Shown: piece by piece, positions 13,664 to 31,490 of the stretch
How positions within the stretch are numbered: the stretch's first letter is position 1
Layout: the number at the start of each line of letters is the position of its first letter
NCBI GenBank assembly: GCA_934746185.1
Contig: CAKVEY010000002.1
Coordinates: 1-32,462, forward strand
Length of the DNA stretch: 32,462 bases
Direction: 5' to 3'
Origin: an uncultured Clostridia bacterium
Lineage (GTDB): Bacteria; Bacillota; Clostridia; Christensenellales; UBA1242
Position numbers and translations under genes: made by a program
Notes under the pieces: model-generated
Told to the model about the DNA's origin: nothing
Databases searched by the model: none
What the model saw: only the letters and a program-made list of their open reading frames with translations

Positions 13664-13692
13664 TTGTTGCATAAATAGTTTTATAGTAATAT
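13664..13692 (+). promoter_or_regulatory. Candidate promoter TTGTTG-17-TAATAT for the small peptide gene, preceded by an inverted repeat ATTAG-N8-CTAAT (13645-13662)
   Basis: The hexamer spacing was read directly from the sequence. The inverted repeat abuts the -35 and is a possible ArsR operator, but it is short. Confidence 0.35.
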
Positions 13693-13712
13693 TTTGTCAA
13701 AAGGAGGCAAAT

Positions 13713-13901
13713 ATGATTTATTCGCAAGATGTCTTACTTATTTTACTATTATCAATTTTAACAAGTGCAGGTAATATCGACTTAAACACTAACACTAACT
13801 TCTTACTTCTACTTTTATTAACTTTATCTAATAGTAATACAGGCTGTCCTACAAATACTTGTTCTAGTTGTAGTAGGAGATACGCAGGATTTACAATATA
13901 A
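13713..13901 (+). CDS. 62-aa peptide with a hydrophobic Leu-rich body and a Cys/Ser/Thr-rich tail, function unknown
   Basis: A perfect AAAGGAGG SD lies 5 nt before the ATG. The gene has its own promoter candidate and a downstream hairpin terminator. The tail reads GCPTNTCSSCSRRYAGFTI. Confidence 0.55.
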   Translation: MIYSQDVLLILLLSILTSAGNIDLNTNTNFLLLLLLTLSNSNTGCPTNTCSSCSRRYAGFTI

Positions 13902-13912
13902 CTTTATCATCA

Positions 13913-13962
13913 AAAAAAGAACGCTTTAAAGAGATTTATTCTTATTATTAAAGCGTTTTTTC
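13913..13962 (+). terminator. Terminator after the small peptide gene
   Basis: A 10-bp stem AACGCTTTAA/TTAAAGCGTT with an 18-nt loop is followed by TTTTT. Confidence 0.6.
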
Positions 13963-13981
13963 TATAAAAATAAAATTAGTA

Positions 13982-14010
13982 TTGACATTACTATAAAAAA
14001 GCGTTAAACT
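13982..14010 (+). promoter_or_regulatory. Candidate promoter TTGACA-17-TAAACT for the 14030 gene
   Basis: The hexamers are at 13982-13987 and 14005-14010. AAGGAG SD follows. Confidence 0.5.
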
Positions 14011-14029
14011 TATTTAATAAGGAGATTAT

Positions 14030-14491
14030 ATGAAATTAAACGAAGAAATTAAACAAATTAGCCAAAAAGACTTAACAAATTTAAATGGTGAAGAGTTAAA
14101 AAATTATAGCGTACAATTAATGAATCTAACTACAAGTGCAGACGCTAATGCAAACAAATGGAAAAAGATTTATCAAATTGTAGGTGGGATTATATCTTTG
14201 GTTGCCACACTTTTAATTGTTTGTGCTATTTTTAGTTATCGACGAACTTTGAATACAACAGTAATGACAATATCCTATGTTTTTGCCGGAATATTATTAA
14301 TGTCAACTTATGTATTAAAATTCTTTTATAAAAAAGCAACAAGCGATAGTGAAAAAATGAAAAGAATTTACAGTTTAAAATTAGTTGAAATTAATAACCA
14401 AATTGCAAAAAATGCAACAAAAAATTCTAACAACGCAGTAAACAATTCTAACAACGAAACAGTCGCAGAAACCCCAGCCGAAAACAAATAG
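14030..14491 (+). CDS. Membrane protein with two predicted TM helices, function unknown
   Basis: 153 aa with an SD. Hydrophobic segments are IVGGIISLVATLLIVCAIF and VMTISYVFAGILLMSTYVL. The tail is Asn-rich. Confidence 0.72.
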   Translation: MKLNEEIKQISQKDLTNLNGEELKNYSVQLMNLTTSADANANKWKKIYQIVGGIISLVATLLIVCAIFSYRRTLNTTVMTISYVFAGILLMSTYVLKFFYKKATSDSEKMKRIYSLKLVEINNQIAKNATKNSNNAVNNSNNETVAETPAENK

Positions 14492-15796: not shown

Positions 15797-16606
15797 TTAC
15801 TCCTTTTTTATTTTTATAACTCTGTCTAAATTATTATAATCTTTAATTAATGTTACATCTTTATATTTTTGCTTAAATAAATTTATTAAATTGCCTTGAT
15901 TATAACCGATTTCTAGCAAACATACGCCGTTTTCGTTTAAAAATTTATCTAAATTATCAAATATAATTTTGTAAAATTTTAAACCATCTTCTCCACCGTC
16001 TAACGATATAATTGGGTCAAAATTTTTAACTTCATCATCTAAGTTTTTAACAACATTAGTTTCTATATATGGTGGATTACAAATAATTAAGTCGTATCTA
16101 CCATTTATATTATTAAACATATCAGTTTGTACGAAATTTGCTTGTAAATTCAACTTTTTAGCGTTAATTTTGCTTACTTTTAAGGCTTTTTTACTAATAT
16201 CAGCAAGTGTTAAGTCTGTTTCTTTCCTATTATTTTTAATAGAAAGTCCTAAACAACCACTTCCACAACATAAATCTAAGCAAGAATTAAATTTTTCTTT
16301 CAATGCCGTTTCCACCAAAATTTCGCTATCGAACCTTGGAGTTAAAACAAAATTATTAACATAAAATTCTAAACCGAAAAAATATGCTTTTTTAAATATT
16401 TTTTGATATGGAATTTTTGTTTTTAAATGTTGTTTTACTATCTTTTTTATTTTATAAACTTCAAAAATCGAAAAATCTAAAAATTTAACTTCTAAAATAT
16501 TAGTTTTACATATTTCACTTAAACAATAATCAATTTCATTTATATTAGGATTATTATAATAATTATATAATTTAATTAATTCTTTTTTTAAATCGTTATA
16601 TTTCAT
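15797..16606 (-). CDS. prmC: Release-factor glutamine N5-methyltransferase
   Basis: 269 aa with a SAM-binding LDLCCGSGCLG motif and the catalytic NPPY (ICNPPYI). It ends 3 nt upstream of the prfA start. Confidence 0.88.
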   Translation of the reverse strand: MKYNDLKKELIKLYNYYNNPNINEIDYCLSEICKTNILEVKFLDFSIFEVYKIKKIVKQHLKTKIPYQKIFKKAYFFGLEFYVNNFVLTPRFDSEILVETALKEKFNSCLDLCCGSGCLGLSIKNNRKETDLTLADISKKALKVSKINAKKLNLQANFVQTDMFNNINGRYDLIICNPPYIETNVVKNLDDEVKNFDPIISLDGGEDGLKFYKIIFDNLDKFLNENGVCLLEIGYNQGNLINLFKQKYKDVTLIKDYNNLDRVIKIKKE

Positions 16607-16646
16607 AATTAAAAAAATAAGAACACAGACTTACTCTATGTTCCTA
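16607..16646 (-). terminator. Hairpin plus T7 run between rpmE and prmC (terminator or attenuator-like)
   Basis: The minus strand reads AGGAACA-(11 nt)-TGTTCTT-A-TTTTTTT-AATT-ATG(prmC). The stem is 7 bp including one G-U pair. Confidence 0.35.
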
Positions 16647-16733
16647 CTTTTTGCTTATAGTTAAAAATTTTTGAGTAAAATTTACCAGCACAAAGCATAG
16701 AACACAGCAAAATCTGTGCCTAGTAAACCTTAC

Positions 16734-16940
16734 CTATTCCATATTAAATTTTTTCTTAAATTTATCAACTCTACCACTAGAATCTACCATTTTTCTTTTA
16801 CCTGTATAGAAAGGATGACATTTGTTACAAATTTCTACTCTAACAACGTCGCCATTTACTGTAGATTTAGTTTTAAAAGTTTCTCCACAAGCGCAGATAA
16901 CTTCAACTTCGTGATAATTTGGATGAATACCTTCTTTCAT
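16734..16940 (-). CDS. rpmE: 50S ribosomal protein L31 (Zn-ribbon, C+ type)
   Basis: 68 aa reading [12 protein letters not shown]...CACGE...[20 protein letters not shown] is present. Confidence 0.95.
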
Positions 16941-16970
16941 TTTCGCACCCCTTTTTTTGTAATACGATTT

Positions 16971-16999
16971 ATTATATTATAAAAAGAAAATATTGTCAA
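16971..16999 (-). promoter_or_regulatory. Consensus promoter TTGACA-17-TATAAT for rpmE
   Basis: The reverse complement of 16994-16999 is TTGACA and that of 16971-16976 is TATAAT. The spacer is exactly 17 nt. Confidence 0.6.
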
Positions 17000-17012
17000 C
17001 TATTTTTAAAAA

Positions 17013-17234
17013 TTATTTTATAACTTTAACAACAAAGTTGCAAAAGTCGTCTAAACTCATTTTTTGCATAACAACAATGTTAAAAGCTACGCTAGGTTTA
17101 ACTAAATGGTCGCCATAAAGCATACGCTTTAAGTTCCACTTAGAAATTAGTGCCTTTTTACTATACTCTTCTAGCGATAATTTGTTTTTTTTAATAAAAT
17201 TTTCAACTATATTATATTTTACTTTAACTTCCAT
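17013..17234 (-). CDS. Small HTH (XRE/Cro-like) protein, divergent partner of the 17326 gene
   Basis: I prefer the ATG at 17234 (MEVKVKYNIVENFIKK...) because AAGGAG lies 6 nt upstream. The longer track ORF (to 17276) would start inside the promoter/operator. The HTH-like segment is LSLEEYSKKALISKWNLKRML. Confidence 0.6.
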   Translation of the reverse strand: MEVKVKYNIVENFIKKNKLSLEEYSKKALISKWNLKRMLYGDHLVKPSVAFNIVVMQKMSLDDFCNFVVKVIK

Positions 17235-17255
17235 AATTTTCTCCTTAATACAATC

Positions 17256-17292
17256 TGTACATATTATATTGTACAACTTGTCTAAATGTCAA
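17256..17292 (-). promoter_or_regulatory. Promoter TTGACA-18-TATAAT with the -10 bracketed by two TGTACA palindromic half-sites
   Basis: The minus strand reads TTGACA(17292-17287)...gTTGTACA-a-TATAAT-a-TGTACAg. TGTACA-N8-TGTACA spans 17256-17275. Confidence 0.5.
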
Positions 17293-17325
17293 ATAAATAT
17301 TAATAAATTACTTAAAATATTATTA

Positions 17326-17535
17326 ATGAAAAACAAATTCGCCGAGAGATTTAAAGAATTTTTAAAAACAAACAATATTTCTCAAACACAATTCGCAAAA
17401 AGAATTGGCGTTTCTATTTCATTAATAAATAAATTTTGTTTAGGAACGAGAGAACCTAATTTGGATTTATTATTAACGATTTGTAATGAAATCGGTGAAT
17501 CTGCTGACTATTTATTAGGAATAAAAGAACTTTAA
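17326..17535 (+). CDS. Small XRE-family HTH regulator (paralog 1)
   Basis: I prefer the ATG at 17326 (MKNKFAERFKEFLKTNNISQTQFAKRIGVSISLINKF...), which aligns end to end with the 17645 paralog. The upstream part of the 117-aa track ORF is low-complexity and overlaps the divergent gene. Confidence 0.8.
   Translation: MKNKFAERFKEFLKTNNISQTQFAKRIGVSISLINKFCLGTREPNLDLLLTICNEIGESADYLLGIKEL
17494..17535 (+). repeat. 42-bp perfect direct repeat, copy 1 (3' end of XRE paralog 1)
   Basis: GGTGAATCTGCTGACTATTTATTAGGAATAAAAGAACTTTAA is identical to 17810-17851. The flanking bases differ on both sides. Confidence 0.95.
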
Positions 17536-17591
17536 TTTTGATAAAAATTTTATCAAATGAATACTAGGTTCTTTTTTTTGTTTAAATATAT

Positions 17592-17638
17592 TGCTAATAG
17601 CAGTATGTCAAGTAATTTAATGCTATTAGCATTATAAT
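17592..17638 (+). promoter_or_regulatory. Two 11-bp palindromic operators (TGCTAATAGCA and TGCTATTAGCA) plus a TATAAT 6 nt before the ATG of XRE paralog 2
   Basis: The palindromes are at 17592-17602 and 17621-17631, 29 bp centre to centre. TATAAT is at 17633-17638 and the ATG at 17645. There is no SD. Confidence 0.55.
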
Positions 17639-17644
17639 TCTTTT

Positions 17645-17851
17645 ATGAATAAATTTGCTGAAAGACTAAATGAAAGTTTAAAAAATAACCAAATTTCACA
17701 ATCGGCTCTTGCACGAAAAATTGGAATGTCACAAAGTATTATAAATAATTATTGTCGTGGTGTTAGAGAACCAAGTTTAGATGTTTTAATTAAAATATGT
17801 GAAGCTTTAGGTGAATCTGCTGACTATTTATTAGGAATAAAAGAACTTTAA
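17645..17851 (+). CDS. Small XRE-family HTH regulator (paralog 2)
   Basis: 68 aa reading MNKFAERLNESLKNNQISQSALARKIGMSQSIINNY...GESADYLLGIKEL. Confidence 0.85.
   Translation: MNKFAERLNESLKNNQISQSALARKIGMSQSIINNYCRGVREPSLDVLIKICEALGESADYLLGIKEL
17810..17851 (+). repeat. 42-bp perfect direct repeat, copy 2 (3' end of XRE paralog 2, overlapping the murC stop)
   Basis: Identical to 17494-17535. Confidence 0.95.
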
Positions 17852-19589: not shown

Positions 19590-20999
19590 TTAAAGTATTG
19601 GAGAAAATAAAGAGCAAAACGATATTGCTAGTCTTTTTACGGCTGGCAATTTTTTATAGAAATTTTTTTCAAGTCTACTACTCTCCTTTAAATCTTTAAT
19701 CATAGTTTTATAAAACTTTTTGCTTAACTTTTCATCAAAAACTATCAAACTACTTTCAAAATTCAAGTAAAACGAACGCATATCAAAATTACAACTTCCA
19801 CAAACAAAAATGTTTTTATCTATAAGTAAAGTTTTTGCGTGCAAAAATCCGTTATATAAATAAACATCAACGCCTAACTCTAATAACTTTTTAGCGTTAT
19901 ATAAACTTGCGTTATAAACAAACTTTTTATCAATAAGTTTAGGAATTAAAACAATAACTTTAACCCCATTTAAAACTGCTTGCTTTAAACAATTTATAAA
20001 CTTGTCATCTAAAATTAAATAAGGCGTTTCAATAATCACTTCGTTAATACTAGAATTTATTAAGTTTATAAAACTATCTTCAATTTTTTGTCCTTTATCT
20101 AATGGGCTAGAACTAATTACTTGTGCATAATTTTGTTTTGTATTTTTAAAATTAAAATTATTATCTATAAAATTATTTTCAATTTTAGGTTTAGACAACT
20201 TTAAATCTTGCAAAAATATTTTTAAAAGTTCTAAACTTGTTTTGCCCACTACCCTTAAATGTGTATCTCGCCACGGTGAAAGTTTTTCATTTTTATTAAA
20301 ATGGTCATCTCTAAAATTAACGCCACCTATATAAGAAATCTTGTTATCTATTATAATTATCTTTCTATGATTACGATAATTTATATTTAATTGAAAAATT
20401 TTTAATAAAGCAGGGAAAAACTCTATAACTTCAACATTATTTTCTTTTAATTCATTAAAAAATTTTTTGTTAGTTTTTTTGCTACCAAAACTATCGTAAA
20501 TAACAATAACTTTAACACCTTGTTTTGCTTTCTTTATTAAAATGTCTTTTATTTTACTTCCTACAATATCGTTACTAAATATATAACTTAATAAAAATAT
20601 CGAATGTTTGGCATTTAATAAATCGGCTTTAACGTTTCGCAAAAACATATTTGTATTTGCGAATATATCAATATTTTCATTATCTAAATATAAAGAATTA
20701 CAATTTAAAGCATTAAAAACTATATTTTGTTTATACTTATTTGTGTTTTTAACATTCTTTATATTATTTTTTATGGTAAGTTTATTTAATCTAGTTAAGT
20801 TATAAATTTTTTGATATTTCGATTTTTTGTTTAAAACTCCAATACCTAATAACAAATAAATAACAAAACTCAAAATGGGCAAAAAAGTAAAAACGAGTAA
20901 CCAAATTGCTACTCTATGTAAACGTTTATGTTCGATAAAAATCATAAACATAATTAATAATAAATTAATTAAATTTACAATATAAAAAAAGACAAGCAT
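19590..20999 (-). CDS. cls: Cardiolipin synthase (phospholipase D superfamily)
   Basis: 469 aa with two N-terminal TM helices and two HKD motifs (HRKIIIIDNKISYIGGVN and HAKTLLIDKNIFVCGSCN). Confidence 0.9.
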   Translation of the reverse strand: MLVFFYIVNLINLLLIMFMIFIEHKRLHRVAIWLLVFTFLPILSFVIYLLLGIGVLNKKSKYQKIYNLTRLNKLTIKNNIKNVKNTNKYKQNIVFNALNCNSLYLDNENIDIFANTNMFLRNVKADLLNAKHSIFLLSYIFSNDIVGSKIKDILIKKAKQGVKVIVIYDSFGSKKTNKKFFNELKENNVEVIEFFPALLKIFQLNINYRNHRKIIIIDNKISYIGGVNFRDDHFNKNEKLSPWRDTHLRVVGKTSLELLKIFLQDLKLSKPKIENNFIDNNFNFKNTKQNYAQVISSSPLDKGQKIEDSFINLINSSINEVIIETPYLILDDKFINCLKQAVLNGVKVIVLIPKLIDKKFVYNASLYNAKKLLELGVDVYLYNGFLHAKTLLIDKNIFVCGSCNFDMRSFYLNFESSLIVFDEKLSKKFYKTMIKDLKESSRLEKNFYKKLPAVKRLAISFCSLFSPIL

Positions 21000-21037: not shown

Positions 21038-24000
21038 TTATATTTCAAATAATTTATAGTTATCACCGTAACTTAAATTTTCGTTAGGGATATATGCTTT
21101 AATATACATTTTTACTGAACTATCTGTTTTACTTCCAGCAATAACACCTGTAAACTTATTTAAAGTTATTCCGTTTGCAGACATTGTTAAATCTGTTACT
21201 TTTGTTCCTGCTAAATTTTCTAAGTTACTTGTAACCAAACTAAATCTTAACAAATCTTCAACAATATTTCCATTTAAAGTATAAACAAATGTATTATTGT
21301 TTTTAACAATAGAATAATTATTTAATTTAAAATATTTGTTTGTAGTATAACTAATTGTCGAAGAAACCGGTGTTTCAGTTTGTAAATAAATTATACCTAT
21401 GTTATTTTCGTTAATATAATCTTTACTAACATTATCATAGAACAAAATATTACCTAAATTGTTTATTTTTAATAAGTTTTCTATTATATAATAAGTTATT
21501 CCGTCTTTTGTTTCTACTTTTATATTGTTATAATCAACATTGTTTAAAGTAGCTTTAACAACGTTAGTAATTGTTTCACCCAAATCGTTTTCATTGTAAT
21601 AAATTTCTTTATAACTCTTATTATTTATAACATAGTTATTTTCATAATCCAAAACATCATTTTCAACTTTTATAGGTAAAATTTCATTTACATAACAATC
21701 TTTAAAGTTATATTCAATATAAATTGTTTTATTGCAATTTTCATTAACATATAAAACATTGTTTTTAATAGAACTATCACTATTAATTAACTTGTAAGCA
21801 AAGTTAGATGCAAAATTATTTTCGCCAACTTTAAAATTAAATATATTTTGCAAATCTATTTTAGAGTTATTTTTTATTGTTATTGCATTTTGAATTTCTT
21901 CTTTAATATTTGCAATTCTTAATTTTAAAACTAATGGTTGATTAACGATTGTTGCATTTATAGTTAAATAATAAATATCTTCTTTTGCTTTTAATTGTAA
22001 TTTAGAATCTACTAAATTTACATATTGTTCGCTATCTATTGAAGTAAAAACATTATTATTATTTTCTACTATAACATTGTTTTTAGCAATTTCAAATTTT
22101 ACATCACTATCTGTTAATATGTTAGTTTGTGAATATAAATCTACAAAATCTGTTAAATCAATAGTTTTTTCAGTTAAGTTTTTATAATAAATAGTTATAA
22201 ATTCTTCGCCATTTTTTATAACAACTGCGCCATCTATAATAGCATCGGCACTAAAAGTATAATCTGGTGTGTATTTAGAACTTATTTGCACTGGATATAT
22301 TTTAACATAAACACGGCTTTCTAAATAGTCGTTGCCTGTTTTGCCATTTGTTACTGTAAAATAACCAAAAGTAATTGTATTTGTAGTTATGGCTTTAATT
22401 TCTCCGTTTTCAAAACTTACATTAACAAAATCGCTATTTTTAATATTATTATTGTTTAATAAATATGTTAAGTTATATTTTTCACCTGAAATTAAATTTA
22501 AAACTTTAACGCCATTTTCAGTTAAATATCTTTTATCGTCATTTAAAACTATAACATTTTCTTCACTAATATTGTTTGTAAACTTTCTAGTTTCTCTCAT
22601 AGAATTATAGTTTGCATCTATTTCTACTGAAATCTTTTTATTTGTGTTTAAGTTAGTTACTGTTCCGTTACTTAATAAAGTGAATAATAAGTTATTATCA
22701 ACGTCATAAATATGATAACGAATAATTCCTGACACTACTTCAATATTAAAAGTTATATAAGTTTCATTGTTTCTTACTGCTACAATACTTCCATTATTTA
22801 AAATAGTTGAATTATTAACAAGTGTGTTAACAGGAGCAAATAAAGTAGTATTTAATGTTTCGCCTTCGTCTGTGTAAATAATGTTTACGCTACTAGATAC
22901 AATATCACCTATTTTAGCATAAACTACAAACGTATTTCCCGTTATGCTTAACTTGTTATCAATAATTTCTTTGTTTTCTGTGCCTTCTTGAACTAAATAT
23001 GTTTGAATTTTATCATTCAAATTTATATTATTTGCTTCACAGTTAGTTTGAGCGTAAAATGCATTATAAATTAAGTTATAATATTTAATTTCATTATCTA
23101 ATGTTAAATCTGCGTTTGTAATGTTTATCTCACTATTTGTAACAAACATTTTAACTGGCATTAATCTAACATTTAAGATATTTTCTACTATGCTATTATT
23201 TAGTAAACTTAAATTAATATTTAATAAAATTTCGCTATCTAAACTTGAATAGCAAGTCATTACAAAATTAGATATTTTGAATATTAAATTGCCGTTATAA
23301 TTTAGAATTAGCCCATTAGAGTTATTAATAATTTCAAAATTATTTCGATTTAAACTACCACAATTTTCTATATTTAAAGCAAATTCTAGGTTGTTATAGA
23401 AATTGTCGTTTGTTGCAATGATATTATTAACATTGTTGTCATTTTTTAAAATTATGCTGTTTGTTGCATATAGGTTTTCATATTTTTTAGTTTCAAGTGT
23501 TGTTTCATTAGTTTTAGTAGTGTAATTTGAGTAGTTAACATCTATTTTTAAATCTGCTACAATTATGTTAATAGTGTATTTTGCATCGTTAACATTTATT
23601 GTAACTATAAAACTACCACTTGTTTTTGCTGTAAATAATCCGTTAGCATCTACATAACCATTTTCATCTAAATAAGTTACATTTCTATTAGATAGACTTT
23701 TAATACTTAAATTCGTAGCATTTAATTTAGATTGTAAAATTGTTTGTAAGTTTACACTTTCACCTACATAACTATCTAAATTGTCAAAAGTAATCTCATC
23801 AGTTGTAACTTTAAAGTTTATAGTAAACACACCATCTAAATTAATCACTGTGTCGCTATCAATTTTACCAAAAGCGTTTTCATATTCAACTAATTTGTAT
23901 GTTGGTAAATTTTGTGAAGAAAATTTATCAAATTTTTGTAAAGTAAAGTAATCATAGTAGTTTATAGATTCGCCTTTTAAAACTACAAAAGTTGTTTGCA

Positions 24001-27000
24001 TACTTGATGATTTATATAAAGGTACTACTTTTACATTAATTTCTTCAACCACCGAACCATTTATTACAGAAATTATTATATATAAATCTTCATTTATCGA
24101 ACTATTTGTAATTAAGTTAGAACCATTTAAACTAATTCCGGATACACTAACAACATTACCTAGAGAATTAGTTATTGATTTTATTTCATAACTTAAATCA
24201 TTACTGTTTTCTACGCCACCGATTAAAGAATATAAATCAAATTCGTTAGAAGCAACTAAATTTTGATACATTTTATCATTATAAACTACGGGATTAATAT
24301 AATTTACGCTCATTTTTTGTGCGTGAATATTTGTTAAAACTTTACTAGTTAAACTACCATATTTACAAGATAAGTTAAACTCTAAATCGCCGTCCAAATC
24401 ATTTGATATTTCTAAAACATAATTATTATTAGTTTTAGTTAAAGTAAATAATAATTTGCCAGCAAAACTAAATTCGCCGTTTGATTCGTTAAAGAAGTTT
24501 GAATTAGAATAAACATTTTCTCCAACTGTGTATTTTATATCGTTTAAAGAAACGAAAACCTCAACATCGACATTAGAAATAGTTTCTTCTTTTAAATTAA
24601 CAGTTATTATTTTCTTATTGTTTTCATCAATTAAAGAACTAGAACCAATATAATATGTTTTTCCTAATGATAAATTGTAACTGTTAACATCAGCGTCATT
24701 ATATTTAAAATTTATTTCAACGTTTTCACCTTGAATATAAATTGTATATTCTTTATTAAGTAGTGTAAATGTTACATCAATTTTGCCTGTTACTTGTTGA
24801 TAACATTTTAAAATTCCGTTATCTAAAGTATATATAACATTATTGAATGAATCTTTAACTTCTTTGCTTGCAAAACTTAAATATGTTAAATATTCGTTTT
24901 GGTCAACAATTTTTTCACCATTAATATAAATATTATTTTTTAGATCCATTTCCTGTGCGTTTGAAATAGATAATCTATTTGTTTCGCTGTTTTCAGTTTT
25001 ATCGTCATTATAAATTTTAATTGATAAATCTATAACTTTTAATGTGTAATAATAATTTTCACCATTTGCTTCAACTAAAATAGAGTAACTACTAACTGAA
25101 TTGTTGTATGCTACGGTAGATATTTGAATTTCTGCTGTATCTACTTTTTTAATATATTTTAACGTGTGATATGTGCCAACAAATTCTTCTTGATAATTAT
25201 CTTTGCTACCAAATTTTATAGAACTTACACTATCGCTGTTATATTTTAATAAATTGCTTGTATTGCCTACAACATAATTGCCAGGAGAATAAACTGAAAT
25301 GTAATTTTGATTTTCGTCATATTTTGCAACAATGTTTGTACTTGGTTTTAAACAAATATTAAAGTAACCCGTATAACTTTCTACTGTATATTTAATTTTA
25401 AAGAATACATATTCAACTAATGCTTTGCTTGCACTAAATTGATAAACATCTTCATTATCGCTTAAAGTAATTGCTGTTCCGTTAAAAGTTGATAAACCTT
25501 TATTTGTAATTGAAGTAATATTATAAAGTAGTCCACTATAAGTTAGCATAGAGCCGTTATCTGTTACTTCCCCAACAAAACTAGAAGATAAATTATCTAT
25601 TAAAACGGCAACTTTTGAAATTGAACTTTCAATATTCAATTTAAACGCTTTATCATCTTCACTTGTTAATACATAATAAGTTTCATTGTTTACATCTACT
25701 TGGTTATCTGCCTTTAATGTTACATTGATTTTTGTAACATTTAAAGTAACTTCTATGTATTTATTATCTAAAACTTCTAAATTATAGCCTTCTGCTGTTA
25801 AATTTAAGTAACCACGAAGAACTATTGTCATATTATCTAAATTATTTGTGCATTTGAACACTTTTTTAGATATATCAACTTGTTTATCAGTTACGCCATT
25901 AATTATACTTGCAACCATTTCACCATTTTTTAATAAGTCATAACTATCAGTTATTCTATTATAAATAGTGCTATAATTTTCTTTATTTTCAACTTCTAAA
26001 CTAATAAATCTATAATCAATACAATATTTGTTTTCAGCACTTCCATTTTGAGATTCAACAAAGTAGTTGCTATCTCGTGATGTTAATTCTGTTTCATTTT
26101 CACCAACATAAATGTTAATATTTTTTCTATTATTATAAACATCTAACGATTTTATAGTAAATGTGATTTCTTTTTGACATTCAATATTTGTAGTATTTTC
26201 TACAAACGCTATAATTTTAAATGTTCCGTCAGCTGTACTTGCTAAATGTATTTGACCAGTTAAACTATCTAATGTTCCTATTTCTTTATTGCTTTCATTT
26301 TTTATTCGATAAATTCCGTTTGTTAAGTCAATAATATAACTATCATTAGGTTTATAATTTAATTGTAGTTCTTTACTACTAATTTTAGCCTTAATATAAT
26401 TTGTTATATTTGTATTAGGATAAACACTTAAATTAACGTTATTATCTAATTTAGAACCATCATATTTTGTGAATATTACGGGACTTGCATTAATAACTAA
26501 ATTTGTTGTGATAAATTCACCTAAATAAATGTTAATTGTATTTATACTATCATCTAATAAAAGTTGTTCTTCATCAAATGTAATATAATCGTTATATTTT
26601 GTAGTTATATTGCCTTGATTATTTGTTATATAAACATATTTTAATATTTCATTTTTATTTAGTAACTCACCCAAATAATATATTGATTCAACATTTTTAG
26701 TATTAAGTGTTAATGTTTCAATATAAAATTCTAACGATTTAATAACTTTTACAATATTGTTATTATTGTTTTTTACATAAAATTCTAAATATAGAGCATT
26801 ATTTTTAGCACTTGTTAAATTTAATGTGTAATTTGATAAATTTAAAGTATTAAGATTGATGTATTCACCATTTTGTAAAATAACTTCACTATTTGCGTTA
26901 TCTATGTAATAAAGTTTAACCATTAAATCATTTGCAATAGAATTTGTTACATCAACGCTATAAAATGCTTCACTATTTGTTTCATTTCCACCATCAACAT

Positions 27001-30000
27001 CTGTTAAGTTGTAAGTAAAATAATTTAATAAAACTTGTCTATTTCCGTTTAAATCAGTGAATTTAGTAGTTAAAACTACTTTTTTAAGAGTAATTGTTTT
27101 AGAAATTGTCGTTCCTACTGAGTTTAATGAGTACAATTTAATATTCAATTTTAAAGTTAAATCTTCACCCAAATAATTGCTTACTTTTAATGTTGTTTTA
27201 TTGTTAGTAGAATTGTAAACTTTATCAACAACACTACTTTCAAGTTTTGTGTTATCTTCTCTTAAAATTTCAACTTCATAGTTTAAATTATTATTAAAAA
27301 TTAAATTCCAAGTTTCTTCATTAAATATGTCGTATTCTAAATTTGAATATAAAATGTCAAAGCCATTTAAAGTAATTTCTATGTTTTTTACTTCTAAATT
27401 TTTAACAATTTCAATTTTTCTACCTAAAATGTTAAATGTTATATTATATATGCCATCATTATTGAATATAATTGATGCTTTATTGTTTTCTAATGAATAA
27501 TCTTCGTTTATTATAGCATCGTTAGAGTTTATAGTTACACTTTCAATTGTTATATCATTAATATTTAATGAAGATTTAACATCATCGCTTAATGATAATA
27601 AATCTTGAACGCCATAACTTTTTCCAATAACAGCAGTATTTACAATAGAATCAGCAAATTTTTCAACTATTTTGCAACTAATATATTTAATAACATAATT
27701 TGCTTTAAAGCATACAAAGTAATTATCATCATTATCTTTATATAAACTAATTTCAACTGGTTGATTTTGTGCGTCGTCTTCTTCTACAATAAAACTACTA
27801 CTTTCAACATAACTATTAAGTGATAAAATTGTTTCAGGTTTTAAACTAAAATCTGCATTAATTTCATCTTGTGTTAAATATATAGTTGATACATTTTTTA
27901 ATTGTAGTGTAGTTAATTTAAAGTTTAATGTAAAATTATGATTTTCTTTAACTGTTTGTTCGCCGTCTATTATTGCTGTAATTTTTGCTTGTAAATTTTC
28001 TATTTTATAAATGTTAAAGTTTTGTGGAATTGTAATTTCATCGTTAGTTATAACAATGTTACTATCAATAGATTTTATTCTATCTTTGCTTTCTTTTGTA
28101 AGTTCTACTTTTGTTATTTCGGCGTTTTCTAATAAAGAATTATTTTTATAAATCTTAAATAAATCTTTTAGTTTTATTGTTTGACCATTGTTTACGTATT
28201 CATTATTTTGAATTGTTAAATTAGATTTTACAATTATAGGTAAAATTCCTTCGCTTGTAACATTTTTAATAGTTCCGTTATCTTCATAACTATATTCTAA
28301 AACTGCATAGATGCTAATTTGTGAATTTGTAAACGAATTAGTAGAAACTTCATAACTATCAGTTATTTCGTACTGATAACTGTTTGAAGTTTTGTTTTCA
28401 TACAATTTATAATTAATTGTTGTGCTATCTATAACATTGCTTTCAATATTGCCTTTATAAGCACCATTTGGAACAAATTGTCCGTAAACATTTTGTTGTA
28501 ATTTTATATTTTTAATTAATTGTGCTTTTGTTATAGTATCACCAGCGTTTAAATTTAAAGATGTAGTTTTAACTTCAAATTTAGGAACAATATAGAAATA
28601 TAAATCTATATAATCTTCGTCATTAAAGAAATTTGCTTTTATAGTAATTTTACATCTTGTTGCTGTTTTAACATTATAGAATTTATTGCCACTAAATAAA
28701 ATACTATCGTCTTGTGATTTATCAGTTGTTTCTGCAATAAAATCATCTGCACTAAATCCATCTTCTAGTGGATTATTTTTAAAGTATAAATATCCGTTTC
28801 CGTTAATTTCAAATATTTCATCACCGATAACTCGTTCGTAAGGAATAGAATTTATATAAATAGTGTTGTTTTCATTTCGGTTTGCAATAATTTCAAAGTT
28901 TTCTGGCATTTTAACTTTAACACTTATAGTTTTAGTTTTAATTTGTTCACCATTATCACCTATTATATAAACATAGAATGAAATATCTTCACTTAATGTT
29001 AAAGGATTTATTCTAATTATTTTGTTATCTAATAATTCAATTTCAATTTTTTTAGAATTTGCATTATTTAAAACTAAATATACATTATCTTCAAAATCTG
29101 TTTTGCCATTTATTTCAATATAATGAGTTGTGTCTTCATTAAGATTATTTGTGTAATAAACAATTTCATCACTAACTTCAATGTTGTCTTTAAAAATTCC
29201 TATTGTTTTAGCTTCTTTTTCATTTACTACAACATTGCATCTAAATTCTTCTTTACCGTTAAATATTATAATAACTTGTGTTGAACCAACATTAACACCT
29301 GTAACTGTTATTTTACATTCATCACTTAATTGAGATGGTAAAGTAACCATAGTTGTTATAATATTATTAACATCTGTACGAATTTCCAACAAGTTTAATG
29401 CGTATGCTTCGTTAAAAGTTCGATAATTTGTAACTGTAAATGTAATATCAGTAGAATTTCCTTTTGTTATTGGTTTGTTATCAAATACAAATCCACTTAA
29501 ACTAACTTCGTTTGAAATAACTAAATTTAAGTCTGCACTACGAATTAATTCATATTTATAATCAATAAATTTTTGGTCGTTTTCGTTAATTGTTTCTATA
29601 TAACTATAAATACTTGCATATAAAACGCAACTTGAATTATTTTCACCAGTTCCAGTAGTTTTAATATATCTACCTAATCCGTAAATATTTTCCACTAAAT
29701 TTCCGTCTTCATCTAAATCGTAAGTTTTTAAACTAAAATCATCATTGTATTCAAGTGGACAATCGTTAGTTGGGTTTTTAATGAAAAATCTTACTTTTTT
29801 ATATGTAGCATCTTCTGGATAAATTTCTTTAATTAAAGATTGTAAATCTAACTTGTCGCCGTTAACTTTTAATACATAATTATTTGGGTCATCACCTTGC
29901 TCGTAAGTAGCAAGCAATTTATCAGTAGTTAATTTTAATGATGTATTTTCTACTATTTTTGTAGTTACTTTTACATAAGAATAGTAAACATAATTTGTAC

Positions 30001-31330
30001 TATCATCGTTTGCTAATTCCTTAGATACATCTTGAAGATTATCGTTAGTTAATTGATTTTTTGCAATTCTTATAATTAAATACAAATCTTCTGTGCTTGT
30101 ATAAAATTTAGGAGTAACTGTAAAGTATAATGGATTTACATTTTTTGTAATTACAAAATATTTTGTAGTTATTGTTTTTCCGTCATCACTAATCACTTGA
30201 TTTTGTGATAAATAAAATTTATCTCCACTTTTGTAACCTTCAAAAATTTCAACATCTTGAAGTTTATATTCTAATTGTTTTGCTGTATAATTGCTATTTG
30301 CTGGTGGAACTAAACTTAAATTTAAGTTTAATGGTTTATCACCTGTTTCATAATTTCCATTAACAGAATATTTATAAATGTTATTTACAAATAAATCGAA
30401 AGAACTAGTTGTTGCGTTTATGCCACTTACTTCAATAGAGTTTGAAGTGAATGTTTGAGTTTCTTGACGAATGGCTAGTCCTGTTCCGTCATTAAATAGT
30501 GCATTAAAATAATCTATATCGCTATCATAACTTTCTCTTGGAAGTATTTTAGAATTATTTTCGTAAGTTGATGCAACATAAGCAAATATGTTAAAAGTAC
30601 CAGTTGTTAAAACTTCTACTTCACCTGTTAATCTATCAACTTTTGCAACGCTTTCGTTTGACGAAAAATATAAAATTTGTTTATTGAAGTAATCATTTCC
30701 GTATGTATCATAAAAGATTTGTTTTTTGGGTTTATCTAACGCATTTGTTGGGAAGATATTTTGCACTTGCACTTTAAATTTTGTGCCAGGATAAATTTTA
30801 TTTACATTTGTTAAATTATGGTTTAAATCAAAACTTTTTACTGGGCTTTCTACAAAAACATTTGTTGAAGCATAAACTAAATCTTCTTCTTGAATAGCAG
30901 TTAAAACAAATTCGCCACCTTTATTGTAGTATCTATTTCCTGCACGAGATTGAATAAGTTTTATGTTTAAGTTTTTGCCAACTTTTCCCACATTTTTATT
31001 AGAAGAATCTTTATCAAATTCTACGCAACTATTATCATCTGCCGATAAGGTAACATTAAGTTTAGTAGCATCTTCGTTAGTAGGAATAAGTTTTATTGAA
31101 TTATCATAAATTTCGCCTTTATCGTTACTAGAACCCACTAAAACATAGGCTTGTCTTTCAAAATTCATACCTTGTAAGTTTACAACCTTTTCTCTAAACC
31201 CACCACATAAAGCAAAAACGCCAACCGATAAGCCAATAAAAGCAAAGATTGATGCCACACCTATGCCGATTAATTTAAAGATTTTTTTAACTCTTTTTTT
31301 ACTAAAAGTTTTCTTTTTTTTCTTAGCCAT
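21038..31330 (-). CDS. Giant (3430 aa) N-terminally membrane-anchored surface protein with scattered Ig-like (Big_2-like) segments, function unknown
   Basis: This is one uninterrupted 10,293-nt ORF with a GAGGT SD. The N-terminus is MAKKKKKTFSKKRVKK followed by one hydrophobic helix (approx nt 31205-31279). The rest is Asn/Ile/Tyr/Thr-rich and beta-rich. A Big_2-like segment SSNESVAKVDRLTGEVEVLTTGTFNIFAYVAS lies at approx nt 30572-30670. Confidence 0.9.
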   Translation of the reverse strand: MAKKKKKTFSKKRVKKIFKLIGIGVASIFAFIGLSVGVFALCGGFREKVVNLQGMNFERQAYVLVGSSNDKGEIYDNSIKLIPTNEDATKLNVTLSADDNSCVEFDKDSSNKNVGKVGKNLNIKLIQSRAGNRYYNKGGEFVLTAIQEEDLVYASTNVFVESPVKSFDLNHNLTNVNKIYPGTKFKVQVQNIFPTNALDKPKKQIFYDTYGNDYFNKQILYFSSNESVAKVDRLTGEVEVLTTGTFNIFAYVASTYENNSKILPRESYDSDIDYFNALFNDGTGLAIRQETQTFTSNSIEVSGINATTSSFDLFVNNIYKYSVNGNYETGDKPLNLNLSLVPPANSNYTAKQLEYKLQDVEIFEGYKSGDKFYLSQNQVISDDGKTITTKYFVITKNVNPLYFTVTPKFYTSTEDLYLIIRIAKNQLTNDNLQDVSKELANDDSTNYVYYSYVKVTTKIVENTSLKLTTDKLLATYEQGDDPNNYVLKVNGDKLDLQSLIKEIYPEDATYKKVRFFIKNPTNDCPLEYNDDFSLKTYDLDEDGNLVENIYGLGRYIKTTGTGENNSSCVLYASIYSYIETINENDQKFIDYKYELIRSADLNLVISNEVSLSGFVFDNKPITKGNSTDITFTVTNYRTFNEAYALNLLEIRTDVNNIITTMVTLPSQLSDECKITVTGVNVGSTQVIIIFNGKEEFRCNVVVNEKEAKTIGIFKDNIEVSDEIVYYTNNLNEDTTHYIEINGKTDFEDNVYLVLNNANSKKIEIELLDNKIIRINPLTLSEDISFYVYIIGDNGEQIKTKTISVKVKMPENFEIIANRNENNTIYINSIPYERVIGDEIFEINGNGYLYFKNNPLEDGFSADDFIAETTDKSQDDSILFSGNKFYNVKTATRCKITIKANFFNDEDYIDLYFYIVPKFEVKTTSLNLNAGDTITKAQLIKNIKLQQNVYGQFVPNGAYKGNIESNVIDSTTINYKLYENKTSNSYQYEITDSYEVSTNSFTNSQISIYAVLEYSYEDNGTIKNVTSEGILPIIVKSNLTIQNNEYVNNGQTIKLKDLFKIYKNNSLLENAEITKVELTKESKDRIKSIDSNIVITNDEITIPQNFNIYKIENLQAKITAIIDGEQTVKENHNFTLNFKLTTLQLKNVSTIYLTQDEINADFSLKPETILSLNSYVESSSFIVEEDDAQNQPVEISLYKDNDDNYFVCFKANYVIKYISCKIVEKFADSIVNTAVIGKSYGVQDLLSLSDDVKSSLNINDITIESVTINSNDAIINEDYSLENNKASIIFNNDGIYNITFNILGRKIEIVKNLEVKNIEITLNGFDILYSNLEYDIFNEETWNLIFNNNLNYEVEILREDNTKLESSVVDKVYNSTNNKTTLKVSNYLGEDLTLKLNIKLYSLNSVGTTISKTITLKKVVLTTKFTDLNGNRQVLLNYFTYNLTDVDGGNETNSEAFYSVDVTNSIANDLMVKLYYIDNANSEVILQNGEYINLNTLNLSNYTLNLTSAKNNALYLEFYVKNNNNNIVKVIKSLEFYIETLTLNTKNVESIYYLGELLNKNEILKYVYITNNQGNITTKYNDYITFDEEQLLLDDSINTINIYLGEFITTNLVINASPVIFTKYDGSKLDNNVNLSVYPNTNITNYIKAKISSKELQLNYKPNDSYIIDLTNGIYRIKNESNKEIGTLDSLTGQIHLASTADGTFKIIAFVENTTNIECQKEITFTIKSLDVYNNRKNINIYVGENETELTSRDSNYFVESQNGSAENKYCIDYRFISLEVENKENYSTIYNRITDSYDLLKNGEMVASIINGVTDKQVDISKKVFKCTNNLDNMTIVLRGYLNLTAEGYNLEVLDNKYIEVTLNVTKINVTLKADNQVDVNNETYYVLTSEDDKAFKLNIESSISKVAVLIDNLSSSFVGEVTDNGSMLTYSGLLYNITSITNKGLSTFNGTAITLSDNEDVYQFSASKALVEYVFFKIKYTVESYTGYFNICLKPSTNIVAKYDENQNYISVYSPGNYVVGNTSNLLKYNSDSVSSIKFGSKDNYQEEFVGTYHTLKYIKKVDTAEIQISTVAYNNSVSSYSILVEANGENYYYTLKVIDLSIKIYNDDKTENSETNRLSISNAQEMDLKNNIYINGEKIVDQNEYLTYLSFASKEVKDSFNNVIYTLDNGILKCYQQVTGKIDVTFTLLNKEYTIYIQGENVEINFKYNDADVNSYNLSLGKTYYIGSSSLIDENNKKIITVNLKEETISNVDVEVFVSLNDIKYTVGENVYSNSNFFNESNGEFSFAGKLLFTLTKTNNNYVLEISNDLDGDLEFNLSCKYGSLTSKVLTNIHAQKMSVNYINPVVYNDKMYQNLVASNEFDLYSLIGGVENSNDLSYEIKSITNSLGNVVSVSGISLNGSNLITNSSINEDLYIIISVINGSVVEEINVKVVPLYKSSSMQTTFVVLKGESINYYDYFTLQKFDKFSSQNLPTYKLVEYENAFGKIDSDTVINLDGVFTINFKVTTDEITFDNLDSYVGESVNLQTILQSKLNATNLSIKSLSNRNVTYLDENGYVDANGLFTAKTSGSFIVTINVNDAKYTINIIVADLKIDVNYSNYTTKTNETTLETKKYENLYATNSIILKNDNNVNNIIATNDNFYNNLEFALNIENCGSLNRNNFEIINNSNGLILNYNGNLIFKISNFVMTCYSSLDSEILLNINLSLLNNSIVENILNVRLMPVKMFVTNSEINITNADLTLDNEIKYYNLIYNAFYAQTNCEANNINLNDKIQTYLVQEGTENKEIIDNKLSITGNTFVVYAKIGDIVSSSVNIIYTDEGETLNTTLFAPVNTLVNNSTILNNGSIVAVRNNETYITFNIEVVSGIIRYHIYDVDNNLLFTLLSNGTVTNLNTNKKISVEIDANYNSMRETRKFTNNISEENVIVLNDDKRYLTENGVKVLNLISGEKYNLTYLLNNNNIKNSDFVNVSFENGEIKAITTNTITFGYFTVTNGKTGNDYLESRVYVKIYPVQISSKYTPDYTFSADAIIDGAVVIKNGEEFITIYYKNLTEKTIDLTDFVDLYSQTNILTDSDVKFEIAKNNVIVENNNNVFTSIDSEQYVNLVDSKLQLKAKEDIYYLTINATIVNQPLVLKLRIANIKEEIQNAITIKNNSKIDLQNIFNFKVGENNFASNFAYKLINSDSSIKNNVLYVNENCNKTIYIEYNFKDCYVNEILPIKVENDVLDYENNYVINNKSYKEIYYNENDLGETITNVVKATLNNVDYNNIKVETKDGITYYIIENLLKINNLGNILFYDNVSKDYINENNIGIIYLQTETPVSSTISYTTNKYFKLNNYSIVKNNNTFVYTLNGNIVEDLLRFSLVTSNLENLAGTKVTDLTMSANGITLNKFTGVIAGSKTDSSVKMYIKAYIPNENLSYGDNYKLFEI

Positions 31331-31391
31331 AATTACCTCAAATATTTTTTATATATAACTTGTTATATATATTTTATACTAAATATAATTA

Positions 31392-31420
31392 ATTATAAAA
31401 ATAATAGAAAATTTTGTCAA
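31392..31420 (-). promoter_or_regulatory. Perfect consensus promoter TTGACA-17-TATAAT for the giant gene
   Basis: The reverse complement of 31415-31420 is TTGACA and that of 31392-31397 is TATAAT, with a 17-nt spacer. The resulting 5' UTR of about 55 nt contains the inverted repeat TATATATAAC/GTTATATATA (31350-31371). Confidence 0.65.
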
Positions 31421-31458: not shown

Positions 31459-31490
31459 TAAAAAAAGTGATAAATATTTATCACCTTTTA
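31459..31490 (-). terminator. Rho-independent terminator downstream of the DEAD-box helicase gene
   Basis: The perfect palindrome GTGATAAAT/ATTTATCAC (31467-31484) is followed by T7 on the minus strand. Confidence 0.65.

Follow-up and report, generated by a model that had tools for sequence, protein, structure and literature searches.

The 32,462-nt stretch of DNA analysed here (hereafter the window) carries a gene for a protein of 3430 amino acids (aa) that, judged from sequence comparison, belongs to an undescribed and unannotated protein family of uncultured low-GC (~25%) gut Firmicutes. On balance, this giant is probably the main fibre or coat protein on the cell surface in its lineage. 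Giant Ig-repeat surface proteins are already known as a kind; what is unusual here is a non-repetitive chain of constant length, encoded by a gene that is syntenic in all lineages examined and probably expressed at a very high level.

Coding sequence and membrane anchor

The features of the locus are listed below (positions in the window; (-), reverse strand).

19590..20999 (-): cardiolipin synthase gene (cls), 38 nt downstream of the giant gene; TIGR04265, 354.8 bits (cut-off 290 bits)
21038..31330 (-): giant coding sequence, ATG start, 3430 aa and TAA stop
21041..24550 (-): modelled C-terminal ectodomain, aa 2261-3430; ~11-13 tandem beta-sandwich domains predicted by AlphaFold
27881..31195 (-): modelled N-terminal ectodomain, aa 46-1150; ~10 tandem beta-sandwich domains predicted by AlphaFold
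29210..31303 (-): N-terminal core common to the short relatives, aa 10-707 (hhalign)
30566..30835 (-): Big_2-type Ig-like domain, about aa 166-255 (Pfam match aa 216-252)
31208..31273 (-): single hydrophobic helix, about aa 20-41 (Kyte-Doolittle), followed by a conserved GGF motif
31274..31330 (-): Lys/Arg-rich, putatively cytoplasmic stub, aa 1-19, MAKKKKKTFSKKRVKKIFK, with 11 Lys or Arg in 19 aa
31335..31339 (-): Shine-Dalgarno sequence GAGGT, 4 nt upstream of the giant ATG
31392..31420 (-): sigma-70-type promoter, TTGACA (31420-31415), 17-nt spacer, TATAAT (31397-31392)
31460..31485 (-): AT-rich hairpin GGTGATAAATATTTATCAC and T-run between the helicase gene and the giant promoter, read from the sequence

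The open reading frame (ORF) described in the original prediction is borne out. Its product has a mass of 389 kDa; a Lys-rich N-terminus precedes a single hydrophobic helix, everything beyond the helix is all-beta, and the ectodomain has a pI of 4.6.

The gene is real, intact and under purifying selection. The ORF is uninterrupted in every one of at least eight independent assemblies from this species and encodes a protein of 3429-3430 aa with at least 98.5% aa identity, the sole indel among these variants being one Asn within an Asn run. Within-species dN/dS is 0.16, similar to that of the neighbouring housekeeping genes (cls 0.13, murC 0.10, prmC 0.28); variable columns number 8 in the first 1000 aa and 47 in the last 1000 aa, and no diversifying or phase-variable signature was found in this within-species comparison. 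The contig is low-GC and metagenome-assembled, and word-index searches with parts of the protein returned almost no matches; yet an artefact (assembly chimera, pseudogene or chance long ORF in AT-rich DNA) is refuted, with next to no probability left to it, by the constant ORF length across these assemblies, the dN/dS, the collinear orthologues, the confident structure models and the conserved promoter and Shine-Dalgarno sequence.

The poly-Lys stub and single N-terminal transmembrane helix that had been predicted are both recognisable: the stretch at aa ~20-41 is the only hydrophobic one of the whole protein, and AlphaFold places a helix at aa 11-41. The positive-inside rule would put the stub in the cytoplasm. 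Few blocks of the family are conserved as well as the anchor block, which would not be expected of a disposable signal peptide, and we infer that the helix serves as an uncleaved signal-anchor, although a V-x-A-like site at its end (VFA followed by L) may be cleaved by signal peptidase.

As predicted, no known wall-anchoring signal was found: motif scanning detected no LPXTG, lipobox, YSIRK or GW motif, there were no RTX repeats, and SLH, CWB2 and choline-binding domains had no Pfam match. Nor was a catalytic domain detected. Searches of NCBIfam and of PDB sequences gave no match, full-length homology to a characterised adhesin family was looked for and not found, and about 97% of the sequence lies outside any Pfam or NCBIfam model. 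The expected lack of near-identical repeats holds as well, since scans of the gene found neither tandem nor long direct DNA repeats and the protein had no BLASTP match to itself.

Ig-like domains and predicted fold

Three segments had been singled out as Big_2-like (SSNESVAKVDR..., aa 223-254; ITVTGVNVGSTQVIIIFNG, aa 674-692; VTYLDENGYVDANG..., aa 2551-2580). All are present in the translation, as are the proposed module-end peptides VKVVPLY, VRLMPVK, VKIYPVQ and YIVPKFE, but Pfam supports the first segment alone and has no match for the other two. The Big_2 match at aa 216-252 scores 18.4 bits in the whole protein and 23.3 bits in a 344-aa tile (Pfam cut-off 22.8 bits); across the family, Big_2 is matched in 8 of 11 members, with a best E of 1e-6.

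Structure prediction extends this picture considerably. Both modelled parts are all-beta, with a mean pLDDT of 82.8 for aa 1-1150 and 75.6 for aa 2261-3430, so that about two thirds of the protein is predicted to consist of strings of Ig-like beta-sandwiches. Profile-profile self-comparison revealed a few diverged internal repeats (probability up to 94%) and, like the models, supports the earlier estimate of some tens of diverged modules of about 100-130 aa. The entire protein would then comprise about 30 Ig-like domains in a row, all of them different, and the models cover some two thirds of its length; the beta-rich, exported and N-terminally anchored product originally envisaged is likewise supported. 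The C-terminal ectodomain contains a conserved end block, ...SGTKT.SS.KM.IKAY....N...G.N.KLFEI, and the last 80 aa form the second most conserved block of the family.

Foldseek searches with the N-terminal model returned NUP210 (1e-24), GhpA (1e-15) and Sap, EA1 and SbsC (about 1e-13); those with the C-terminal model returned NUP210 (4e-19), together with DSCAM, hydin, GhpA, contactin, Sap and SbsB. Cadherins also stand among the best matches overall, beside NUP210, GhpA, hydin and the Bacillus S-layer proteins, and all of the best matches are multi-Ig ectodomains or S-layer proteins. Because TM-scores are low (0.07-0.22), these matches give the type of domain and a beads-on-a-string layout and point to no specific homologue. 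NUP210 (gp210; PDB 7r5k chain 10 and 9hcj chain 10), the best match of both models, likewise consists of many Big_2-type Ig domains in a long row, none identical to another, with a single membrane helix, and forms ordered lateral assemblies. Unlike the giant, however, it is eukaryotic, has ~15 domains and is anchored C-terminally; with about 9-10% sequence identity and TM-scores of about 0.1 it is an architectural analogue outside the family.

Promoter and flanking signals

The exact TTGACA-17-TATAAT promoter and the good Shine-Dalgarno sequence that had been claimed were both found. This promoter is the sole 12/12 consensus match within the 12 kb scanned; the whole window holds three such promoters against 0.15 expected by chance, and one of the other two drives rpmE (ribosomal protein L31). 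A 12/12 promoter precedes the family gene in all seven lineages examined, namely the window, three with orthologues (L001, L008, L010) and three with short relatives (L009, L011, L012). In the six relatives it is embedded in a conserved context, TTGACAAAAT, and at the L008 and L010 loci (21-26 kb) it is the only perfect one. This conservation and the sharing of the promoter type with rpmE strengthen the original argument for strong expression. GAGG also precedes the start codon in L001, L008 and L010. Judged from these signals, the giant gene is probably highly expressed, although its codon-usage bias is only intermediate. The hairpin upstream of the promoter is probably the terminator of the DEAD-box helicase gene; the automatic scan missed it, presumably because its stem has fewer than three G-C pairs, as the rule of the scan suggests.

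Family and synteny

Ten orthologues of 3373-3681 aa share 27-46% identity with the giant and are collinear with it end to end, conservation being evenly spread and indels small. The slot DEAD helicase, giant, cls is identical in the window, L008 and L010, and continues with spoVG and murC where the contig reaches that far. The L001 fragment, from a relative with 54% identity, displays only the helicase side of the slot; its record, a Hadza gut metagenome, indicates a gut habitat.

Short relatives of ~1200 aa (P0016-P0022), unannotated and drawn from metagenomes and NCBI MAGs, occur in more distant genomes. They share with the giant the N-terminal anchor, the GGF motif, the first ~700 aa (hhalign of the two profiles: probability 100%, E 5.7e-54, giant aa 10-707) and the perfect consensus promoter. 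They differ in being one third as long and in lying downstream of a ribosomal protein/rpoA-rplQ cluster, in genomes of 32-34% GC; past aa ~700, just one module type is recognisably common to both. A further protein, P0013, carries a module homologous to giant aa 293-699. Read by eye, it appears to begin with a lipoprotein signal (LSAC) and to continue with LRR-like repeats.

Possible function

If the giant is a surface fibre or coat protein, its near-ideal sigma-70 promoter and strong ribosome-binding site would ensure high, constitutive expression, and the Lys-rich N-terminus and hydrophobic helix would insert it into the membrane by the Sec route, as an uncleaved signal-anchor with the N-terminus inside. 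The other ~3390 residues would form ~30 non-identical Big_2/Ig-like beta-sandwich domains outside the cell, arranged head to tail. At ~4 nm per domain the acidic chain could span ~100 nm or more, cross the peptidoglycan and make the outermost contact layer of the cell. We infer this extended geometry, and with it the coat or contact function, from the features above; surface exposure is favoured by the distal within-species variability, the P0013 module and the ectodomain pI. No two domains are alike, and in all orthologues each is found at the same place along the chain, so that a simple elastic stalk seems less likely than a chain whose domains make position-specific contacts, either laterally or with a partner.

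Alternatively, the Ig-like string could be the passive stalk of a fibrillar adhesin, with conserved C-terminal domains at its far end that recognise a specific ligand, for example another microbe, dietary particles or a mucin or glycan of the host. We consider this rather unlikely, though it is the most serious competitor. Stalks of Ig-like domains are standard in fibrillar adhesins, and as a class these giant Ig-repeat proteins (Big_2 and Big_3 stalks; SiiE, LapA, MpIBP) resemble the giant, which is a multi-thousand-residue extracellular beta-sandwich chain with at least one Pfam Big_2 domain and an acidic, non-enzymatic, probably surface-exposed ectodomain. The gut habitat, the conservation of the last 80 aa, the greater within-species variation of the distal part and the presence of adhesion molecules and GhpA among the Foldseek matches also fit. 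GhpA, the grappling-hook protein of Aureispira (PDB 9fly, 9flw), is a giant, largely Ig-like bacterial surface protein that forms a fibre; it differs in belonging to a Bacteroidota predator, in its secretion route and in ending in hook structures, and in the giant no terminal domain was recognised as hook-like or non-Ig. Moreover, known adhesins are held by a C-terminal LPXTG or a type I secretion retention module rather than by an N-terminal helix. Unlike in typical adhesins, the giant's domains are all different and not interchangeable, its length is fixed, and Pfam, NCBIfam and PDB sequence searches revealed no known adhesive domain; nor is there a recognisable ligand-binding tip. The locus is not accessory: all lineages examined have it within a conserved neighbourhood of housekeeping genes. 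The gene is also under purifying selection.

The same core-gene slot, constant length, lack of repeat or phase variation and purifying selection lean towards a constitutive coat or fibre. No recognisable binding (tip), lattice-forming or wall-binding domain was found in the protein, so that it is population-genetic and synteny behaviour, rather than biochemistry, that separates coat from adhesin here. To our knowledge, characterised S-layer proteins are all far smaller than 389 kDa, which counts against the coat reading. Of the original interpretation, gene and architecture stand; of the functions it offered, adhesin and S-layer-like coat are both candidates, and for an epibiont attachment protein nothing in the analysis supports an epibiont lifestyle.

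More specifically, the giant could form a true S-layer analogue or ordered sheath, i.e. a lateral lattice tethered by the N-terminal helix in place of an SLH- or CWB2-anchored S-layer. Such a lattice would suit the very strong conserved promoter, the terminator after the gene in L010 and L011, and the position-by-position conservation of domain identity; NUP210, the top match, is likewise anchored in the membrane, and its string of unique Ig domains assembles into an ordered ring. Sap, EA1, SbsC and SbsB of Bacillus and Geobacillus, among the best structural matches of the N-terminal model, are abundant surface proteins with very strong promoters, consecutive beta-sandwich domains and, like the giant, an acidic pI. 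This structural likeness, however, is one that Ig strings show in general, TM-scores are low, and these proteins measure 80-150 kDa, the giant being 2-10 times the size of known S-layer proteins. They bind secondary cell-wall polymers by N-terminal SLH domains (SbsC by another N-terminal cell-wall-binding region), whereas the giant lacks SLH and CWB2 and has a membrane helix instead. We consider an ordered lattice improbable.

Cardiolipin synthase neighbourhood

The gene next to the giant raises a last alternative, a scaffold that organises the envelope or membrane, e.g. at poles, septa or cell-cell junctions, and is tied functionally to cls. In the window, the terminator scan found no terminator between the two genes. 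cls is the next gene after the family gene in the window, L008, L010 and L011, and thus in two upstream contexts (DEAD helicase for the giants, rpoA-rplQ for L011), and in L009 it lies two genes downstream. In L012, however, cls is not at the equivalent position, and terminators separate it from the family gene in L010 and L011, so that co-transcription is not general. The adjacency may simply be inherited gene order, and a membrane-lipid role needs no extracellular chain of more than 3000 aa; we regard such a scaffold as highly improbable.

The giant gene, its product and its variation among strains

The window has a G+C content of ~25% and is tightly packed with housekeeping genes (fba, pfkA, dnaE, whiA, murB, uvrC, prfA-prmC, rpmE, murC, spoVG, the cardiolipin synthase gene cls and a DEAD-box helicase gene), among which lies the gene studied here:

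31330 to 21038, minus strand: open reading frame of the giant protein (hereafter the giant), 3430 aa

The product has a mass of 389 kDa and begins with MAKKKKKTFSKKRVKKIFK, followed by the sole hydrophobic stretch of the protein (about aa 20-41). Asn, Ile, Thr and Tyr are abundant, while Trp occurs once and His seven times, and the ectodomain has a pI of 4.6. The DEAD-box gene upstream encodes a separate CshA-like RNA helicase. The giant is recorded at NCBI as 'hypothetical protein' (MBE5746283.1); exact database look-ups with the window's own giant and cls products found no record.

The window is one entire contig of 32,462 bp, which NCBI and ENA also contain (P0037), and the loci of other strains of the species (L002-L007) were reached via the identical prfA product. 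In these independent assemblies, which display 98.5-99.8% nucleotide identity, the giant ORF is likewise present, and eight full-length variants (3429-3430 aa) group in the 90%-identity cluster. Only 91 of the 3430 columns of the strain alignment are variable and the sole indel is one Asn, while dN/dS (Nei-Gojobori, C-terminal 1690 codons) is 0.16, compared with 0.13 for cls, 0.10 for murC and 0.28 for prmC. An intact ORF across independent assemblies under such selection refutes both a pseudogene and an assembly chimera, the artefact that the original prediction had allowed for. Variable columns are graded along the protein, with 8 in the first 1000 aa and 47 in the last 1000 aa, which fits a conserved membrane-proximal and a more exposed distal end.

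A separate feature marks the 5' end of the gene:

31274-31330, minus strand: homopolymer runs A8, A7 and A7 (poly-Lys codons) in the first 60 nt

These runs are potential slippage sites. Phase variation through them was considered and rejected, as the strains contain neither frameshift nor length variants apart from the single Asn, located at aa 3090.

Promoters, ribosome-binding site and terminators

An exact consensus promoter and a good Shine-Dalgarno sequence had been claimed for the giant gene, and both are present in the sequence, with GAGGT ending 4 nt 5' of the ATG. Perfect promoters (12/12) in the window are the following:

31420 to 31392, minus strand: TTGACA-17-TATAAT, upstream of the giant gene
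16971-16999, minus strand: TTGACA-N16-18-TATAAT
17263-17292, minus strand: TTGACA-N16-18-TATAAT

These three compare with 0.15 expected, while looser promoter-like matches are at chance level in this AT-rich DNA (103 found, 99 expected). One of the other two perfect promoters is situated 31 nt upstream of rpmE (ribosomal protein L31) and the remaining one upstream of a conserved 73-aa ORF without known function; both are kept in strains L002-L006.

A 12/12 promoter with a spacer of 17 or 18 also precedes the family gene in all seven lineages compared, i.e. the window, three loci with giant orthologues (L001, L008, L010) and three with short relatives of ~1200 aa (L009, L011, L012). It is usually embedded in TTGACAAAAT, with a GAGG-type Shine-Dalgarno sequence following, and in L008 and L010 it is the sole perfect match within 21-26 kb. 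A clear intrinsic terminator directly follows the family gene in L010 and L011, while none was seen between the giant gene and cls in the window and L008. Codon usage of the giant gene displays only an intermediate bias. The conserved promoter footprint is the strongest available evidence that the giant would be highly and constitutively expressed.

Further upstream, ~40 nt from the -35 box, we noted another element:

31460-31485, minus strand: AT-rich perfect palindrome GTGATAAAT/ATTTATCAC with a T-run

This element probably terminates transcription of the helicase gene, though it could instead act as an operator, and it shows no conservation in L001, L008 or L010.

Domains and predicted fold

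The sole Pfam match in the giant is Big_2 (PF02368) at aa 216-252, which scores 18.4 bits on the whole protein (below the 22.8 threshold) and a marginal 23.3 bits on a 344-aa tile, so that the protein has one bacterial Ig-like region just above the gathering threshold. Of the few Big_2-like segments proposed originally, this one thus holds when the protein is tiled, and no further Pfam match was obtained. Across the family, Big_2 is matched in 8 of 11 members (best E 1e-6). No match to the giant resulted from NCBIfam or from single-sequence and profile searches of the PDB, and neither these searches nor Pfam on all 11 members revealed an enzymatic or known binding domain; the Pfam and NCBIfam libraries together cover ~3% of the protein.

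The AlphaFold model of aa 1-1150 (23 sequences, mean pLDDT 82.8) comprises a helix at 11-41 and then about ten beta-sandwich domains, and that of aa 2261-3430 (10 sequences, mean pLDDT 75.6) about 11-13 such domains. Both models are all-beta with Ig-like modules, and extrapolation from them would give about 30 domains for the whole ectodomain. Every top Foldseek match is a string of Ig-like domains. In the PDB these include NUP210 (E 1e-24 for the N-terminal and 4e-19 for the C-terminal model), the eukaryotic multi-Ig proteins DSCAM, hydin, contactins and (proto)cadherins, and from bacteria the GhpA grappling hook, the S-layer proteins Sap, EA1, SbsB and SbsC, and alpha-2-macroglobulin; TM-scores are low, as expected of flexible multi-domain chains. 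In a viral structure library only generic Ig-rich phage proteins were matched.

When 130-aa windows of the family alignment were compared profile against profile, 15 of 2016 pairs exceeded 50% probability, for example aa 2346-2437 with 2608-2725 (94%) and the Big_2 region 146-264 with 1607-1725 (60%). The modules are therefore very old and highly diverged repeats, and the suggestion of some tens of diverged modules agrees with both these internal matches and the predicted beta-sandwich strings. Similarly, the reported lack of near-identical tandem repeats was confirmed, since DNA repeat scans of the gene and self-BLASTP of the protein were both empty.

Membrane anchoring and classes of surface proteins

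Motif scans of the giant found no LPXTG, lipobox, YSIRK or GW motifs (the only LPXTG-like string in a regular-expression scan is VPPAN at aa 341), and Pfam matches neither SLH (PF00395) nor CWB2 (PF04122) in the 11 family members, the window protein included, in line with the original prediction, in which no C-terminal wall-anchoring signal was seen by eye. A sortase-type C-terminal anchor is absent, as the only hydrophobic segment is N-terminal and the protein ends in ...NYKLFEI. Also lacking is the near-identical repeat stalk with copy-number variation of sortase-anchored (MSCRAMM) proteins, the giant giving neither self-BLASTP hits nor DNA repeats and being of constant length within the species. 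The N-terminus, a basic stub plus helix, differs from the retention module of RTX giant adhesins of type I secretion (LapA, SiiE, MpIBP type), and there is no RTX or haemolysin-type calcium-binding Pfam match, with one DxDxDG-like match and no GGxGxD array.

A lipoprotein was likewise rejected: the lipobox [LVI][ASTVI][GAS]C is missing, and Cys42 (FALCGG) is not conserved (family consensus ALFGGF). Conservation within the family is among the highest at the helix and the GGF motif that comes after it, unlike in disposable signal peptides, and on this sequence pattern the helix is taken to be a permanent membrane anchor. As a V-x-A-like site ends the helix (VFA|L), cleavage by signal peptidase at this position is possible.

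Orthologues, short relatives and evolution of the family

A word-index protein search gave the giant the appearance of an orphan, with aa 1-1000 retrieving only a 705-aa fragment and the last 1200 aa nothing. As that collection does contain orthologues, which the index evidently overlooks, this result was set aside. When 1.84 billion cluster representatives were searched exhaustively with HMMER, aa 1-1200 matched only 29 proteins, which include ten giants (3373-3681 aa) and six proteins of ~1200 aa (1177-1324 aa).

Over their whole length the giant orthologues can be aligned with the window protein (27-46% identity), with small indels and evenly spread conservation that is best in the N-terminal ~250 aa and at the C-terminus (last ~80 aa). 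Within the species the protein keeps a constant length; among orthologues the length deviates by ~4.5% in either direction. The order DEAD helicase, giant, cls is kept in all giant loci with enough flank (window, L008, L010; the L001 fragment covers only the helicase side), and in L010, which has the most divergent giant, spoVG and murC follow cls as in the window. The proposed comparison of related genomes thus yields the same genomic slot, a near-constant length and, within the species, purifying selection. UvrC proteins from apparently the same genomes as the orthologues are 68-79% identical to that of the window, while the giants are 31-33% identical; the giant therefore diverges fast, with its length and domain order kept. 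UvrC relatives are labelled 'Clostridiales bacterium' (74%) and 'Christensenellales bacterium' (54%). Fixed length and domain order at ~30% identity point to position-specific constraints on the Ig chain, which would be unusual for bacterial surface fibres.

The short proteins have the anchor and the first ~700 aa in common with the giant (hhalign probability 100%, E 6e-54), and their final module corresponds to a type present more than once in the giant. Their genes are located after rpoA-rplQ in genomes of 32-34% G+C; cls is the next gene downstream in L011, comes two genes later in L009, and is not found at this place in L012. With an anchor and promoter common to forms of 1200 aa and of 3400-3700 aa, and in some lineages a neighbouring cls, the family represents a clean natural experiment in giant-protein evolution. 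An origin of the giant by fusion with short-form neighbours was rejected, as the 304-aa and 439-aa proteins of L012 have only a Big_2-like motif in common with it.

In L009 and L012 a conserved gene pair lies downstream of the family gene, coding for a 426-439 aa protein without known function and a DUF6320 protein, and a DUF975 gene is nearby; these neighbours may form a small surface or envelope gene cluster. One further HMMER match, P0013 (822 aa, from a related organism), resembles aa 293-699 of the giant over one segment (37% identity). As read by eye from the sequence, this segment is preceded by a lipoprotein signal (LSAC), LRR-like repeats and a repeat of the Listeria-Bacteroides type. 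Its chimeric make-up implies that modules of the family are exchanged among surface proteins.

Proposed function and relation to known systems

The basic N-terminus and single helix would insert with the N-terminus inside, following the positive-inside rule, and the remainder would be exported. An Ig domain measures ~4 nm, and about 30 of them, if extended, would reach more than 100 nm, well past the Gram-positive wall; the organism makes peptidoglycan, as murB and murC in the window attest. A strong conserved promoter, purifying selection, fixed length and synteny in every lineage examined together make an abundant surface fibre or coat, produced constitutively, the most likely role; it would mediate contact with the surroundings. 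These properties argue against a strain-variable accessory adhesin.

Among the alternatives, a fibrillar adhesin that binds by its tip is plausible though less likely: the C-terminus (last ~130 aa) is conserved and the habitat is the gut, but Pfam, NCBIfam and PDB sequence searches recognised no ligand-binding tip domain and the usual population signature is lacking. We regard a true lattice-forming S-layer analogue as rather improbable. Several S-layer-type traits do occur, namely a perfect promoter (predicted strength) in 7/7 lineages, the terminators of L010 and L011, the acidic pI and the structural neighbours, yet neither SLH nor CWB2 is found and the size would be unprecedented. A functional link to cardiolipin synthase, suggested by adjacency in two genomic contexts, is very unlikely in view of the terminators in L010 and L011 and the missing cls in L012. 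Finally, nothing supports an epibiont or predatory role, and the earlier suggestion of epibiont attachment found no backing.

Full-length homology to a characterised adhesin family, which would have made the protein ordinary, was not found in Pfam, NCBIfam and PDB searches, nor did we find the family described in the literature: giant bacterial Ig-like surface proteins are a familiar kind, this family itself is not. As described, the Omnitrophota giants possess many transmembrane regions and mostly internal SecA-DEAD domains (10.1101/2023.11.21.568195); that description sets them apart from the present protein, which has one hydrophobic segment and no SecA domain. It further differs from known giants in being anchored at the N-terminus, in lacking recent repeats altogether, in its constant length and syntenic locus, and in the conserved consensus promoter. 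By analogy with NUP210 or S-layers, unique domains that are conserved position by position may make specific lateral or partner contacts.

A more far-reaching scenario, which we put forward tentatively and hold to be unlikely as a whole, is that an ancestral, constitutively and very strongly expressed anchor protein of ~1200 aa grew about threefold within a single low-GC gut lineage and became frozen at ~30 position-specific Ig domains, giving rise to a new envelope type, an ordered membrane-tethered 'Ig brush' or sheath ~100 nm deep that replaces the classical S-layer. If true, an envelope of this kind might be the basis of a life in obligate attachment to a host or to other cells. The lineage is uncultured and poorly characterised, with a close relative from a human (Hadza) gut sample, and the giant, as the largest surface component and probably the most abundant one, would dominate encounters with mucus, phages, immune factors and neighbouring microbes. 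Being annotated as 'hypothetical' and invisible to Pfam and NCBIfam, it is missed by current pipelines.

Other observations in the window

Among the 17 ORFs of at least 80 aa, Trp accounts for 10 of 5804 residues (0.17%) outside the giant and 1 of 3430 within it, and Trp-free enzymes include the 602-aa UvrC, MurB, PrfA, PfkA and Fba. All 17 end in TAA or TAG and none in TGA. An alternative code (TGA = Trp, code 4) was rejected, since it meaningfully lengthens no real gene, so that code 11 stands.

Three further features were noted:

9846-10919, minus strand: 357-aa ORF between murB and uvrC
~12770-14030: strain-variable stretch, arsR to uvrC
~16600-17850: strain-variable stretch, murC to rpmE

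The 357-aa ORF has no Pfam or NCBIfam match and is conserved at the same place in all strain loci. The two variable stretches, as compared in L002, L004, L006 and L007, are small strain-variable islets in an otherwise fixed core region; their small XRE-type HTH genes differ from strain to strain. In addition, L002 and L005 have a further 260-aa ORF, L004 has one with a Rho_N domain, and in L007 several small ORFs form a block.
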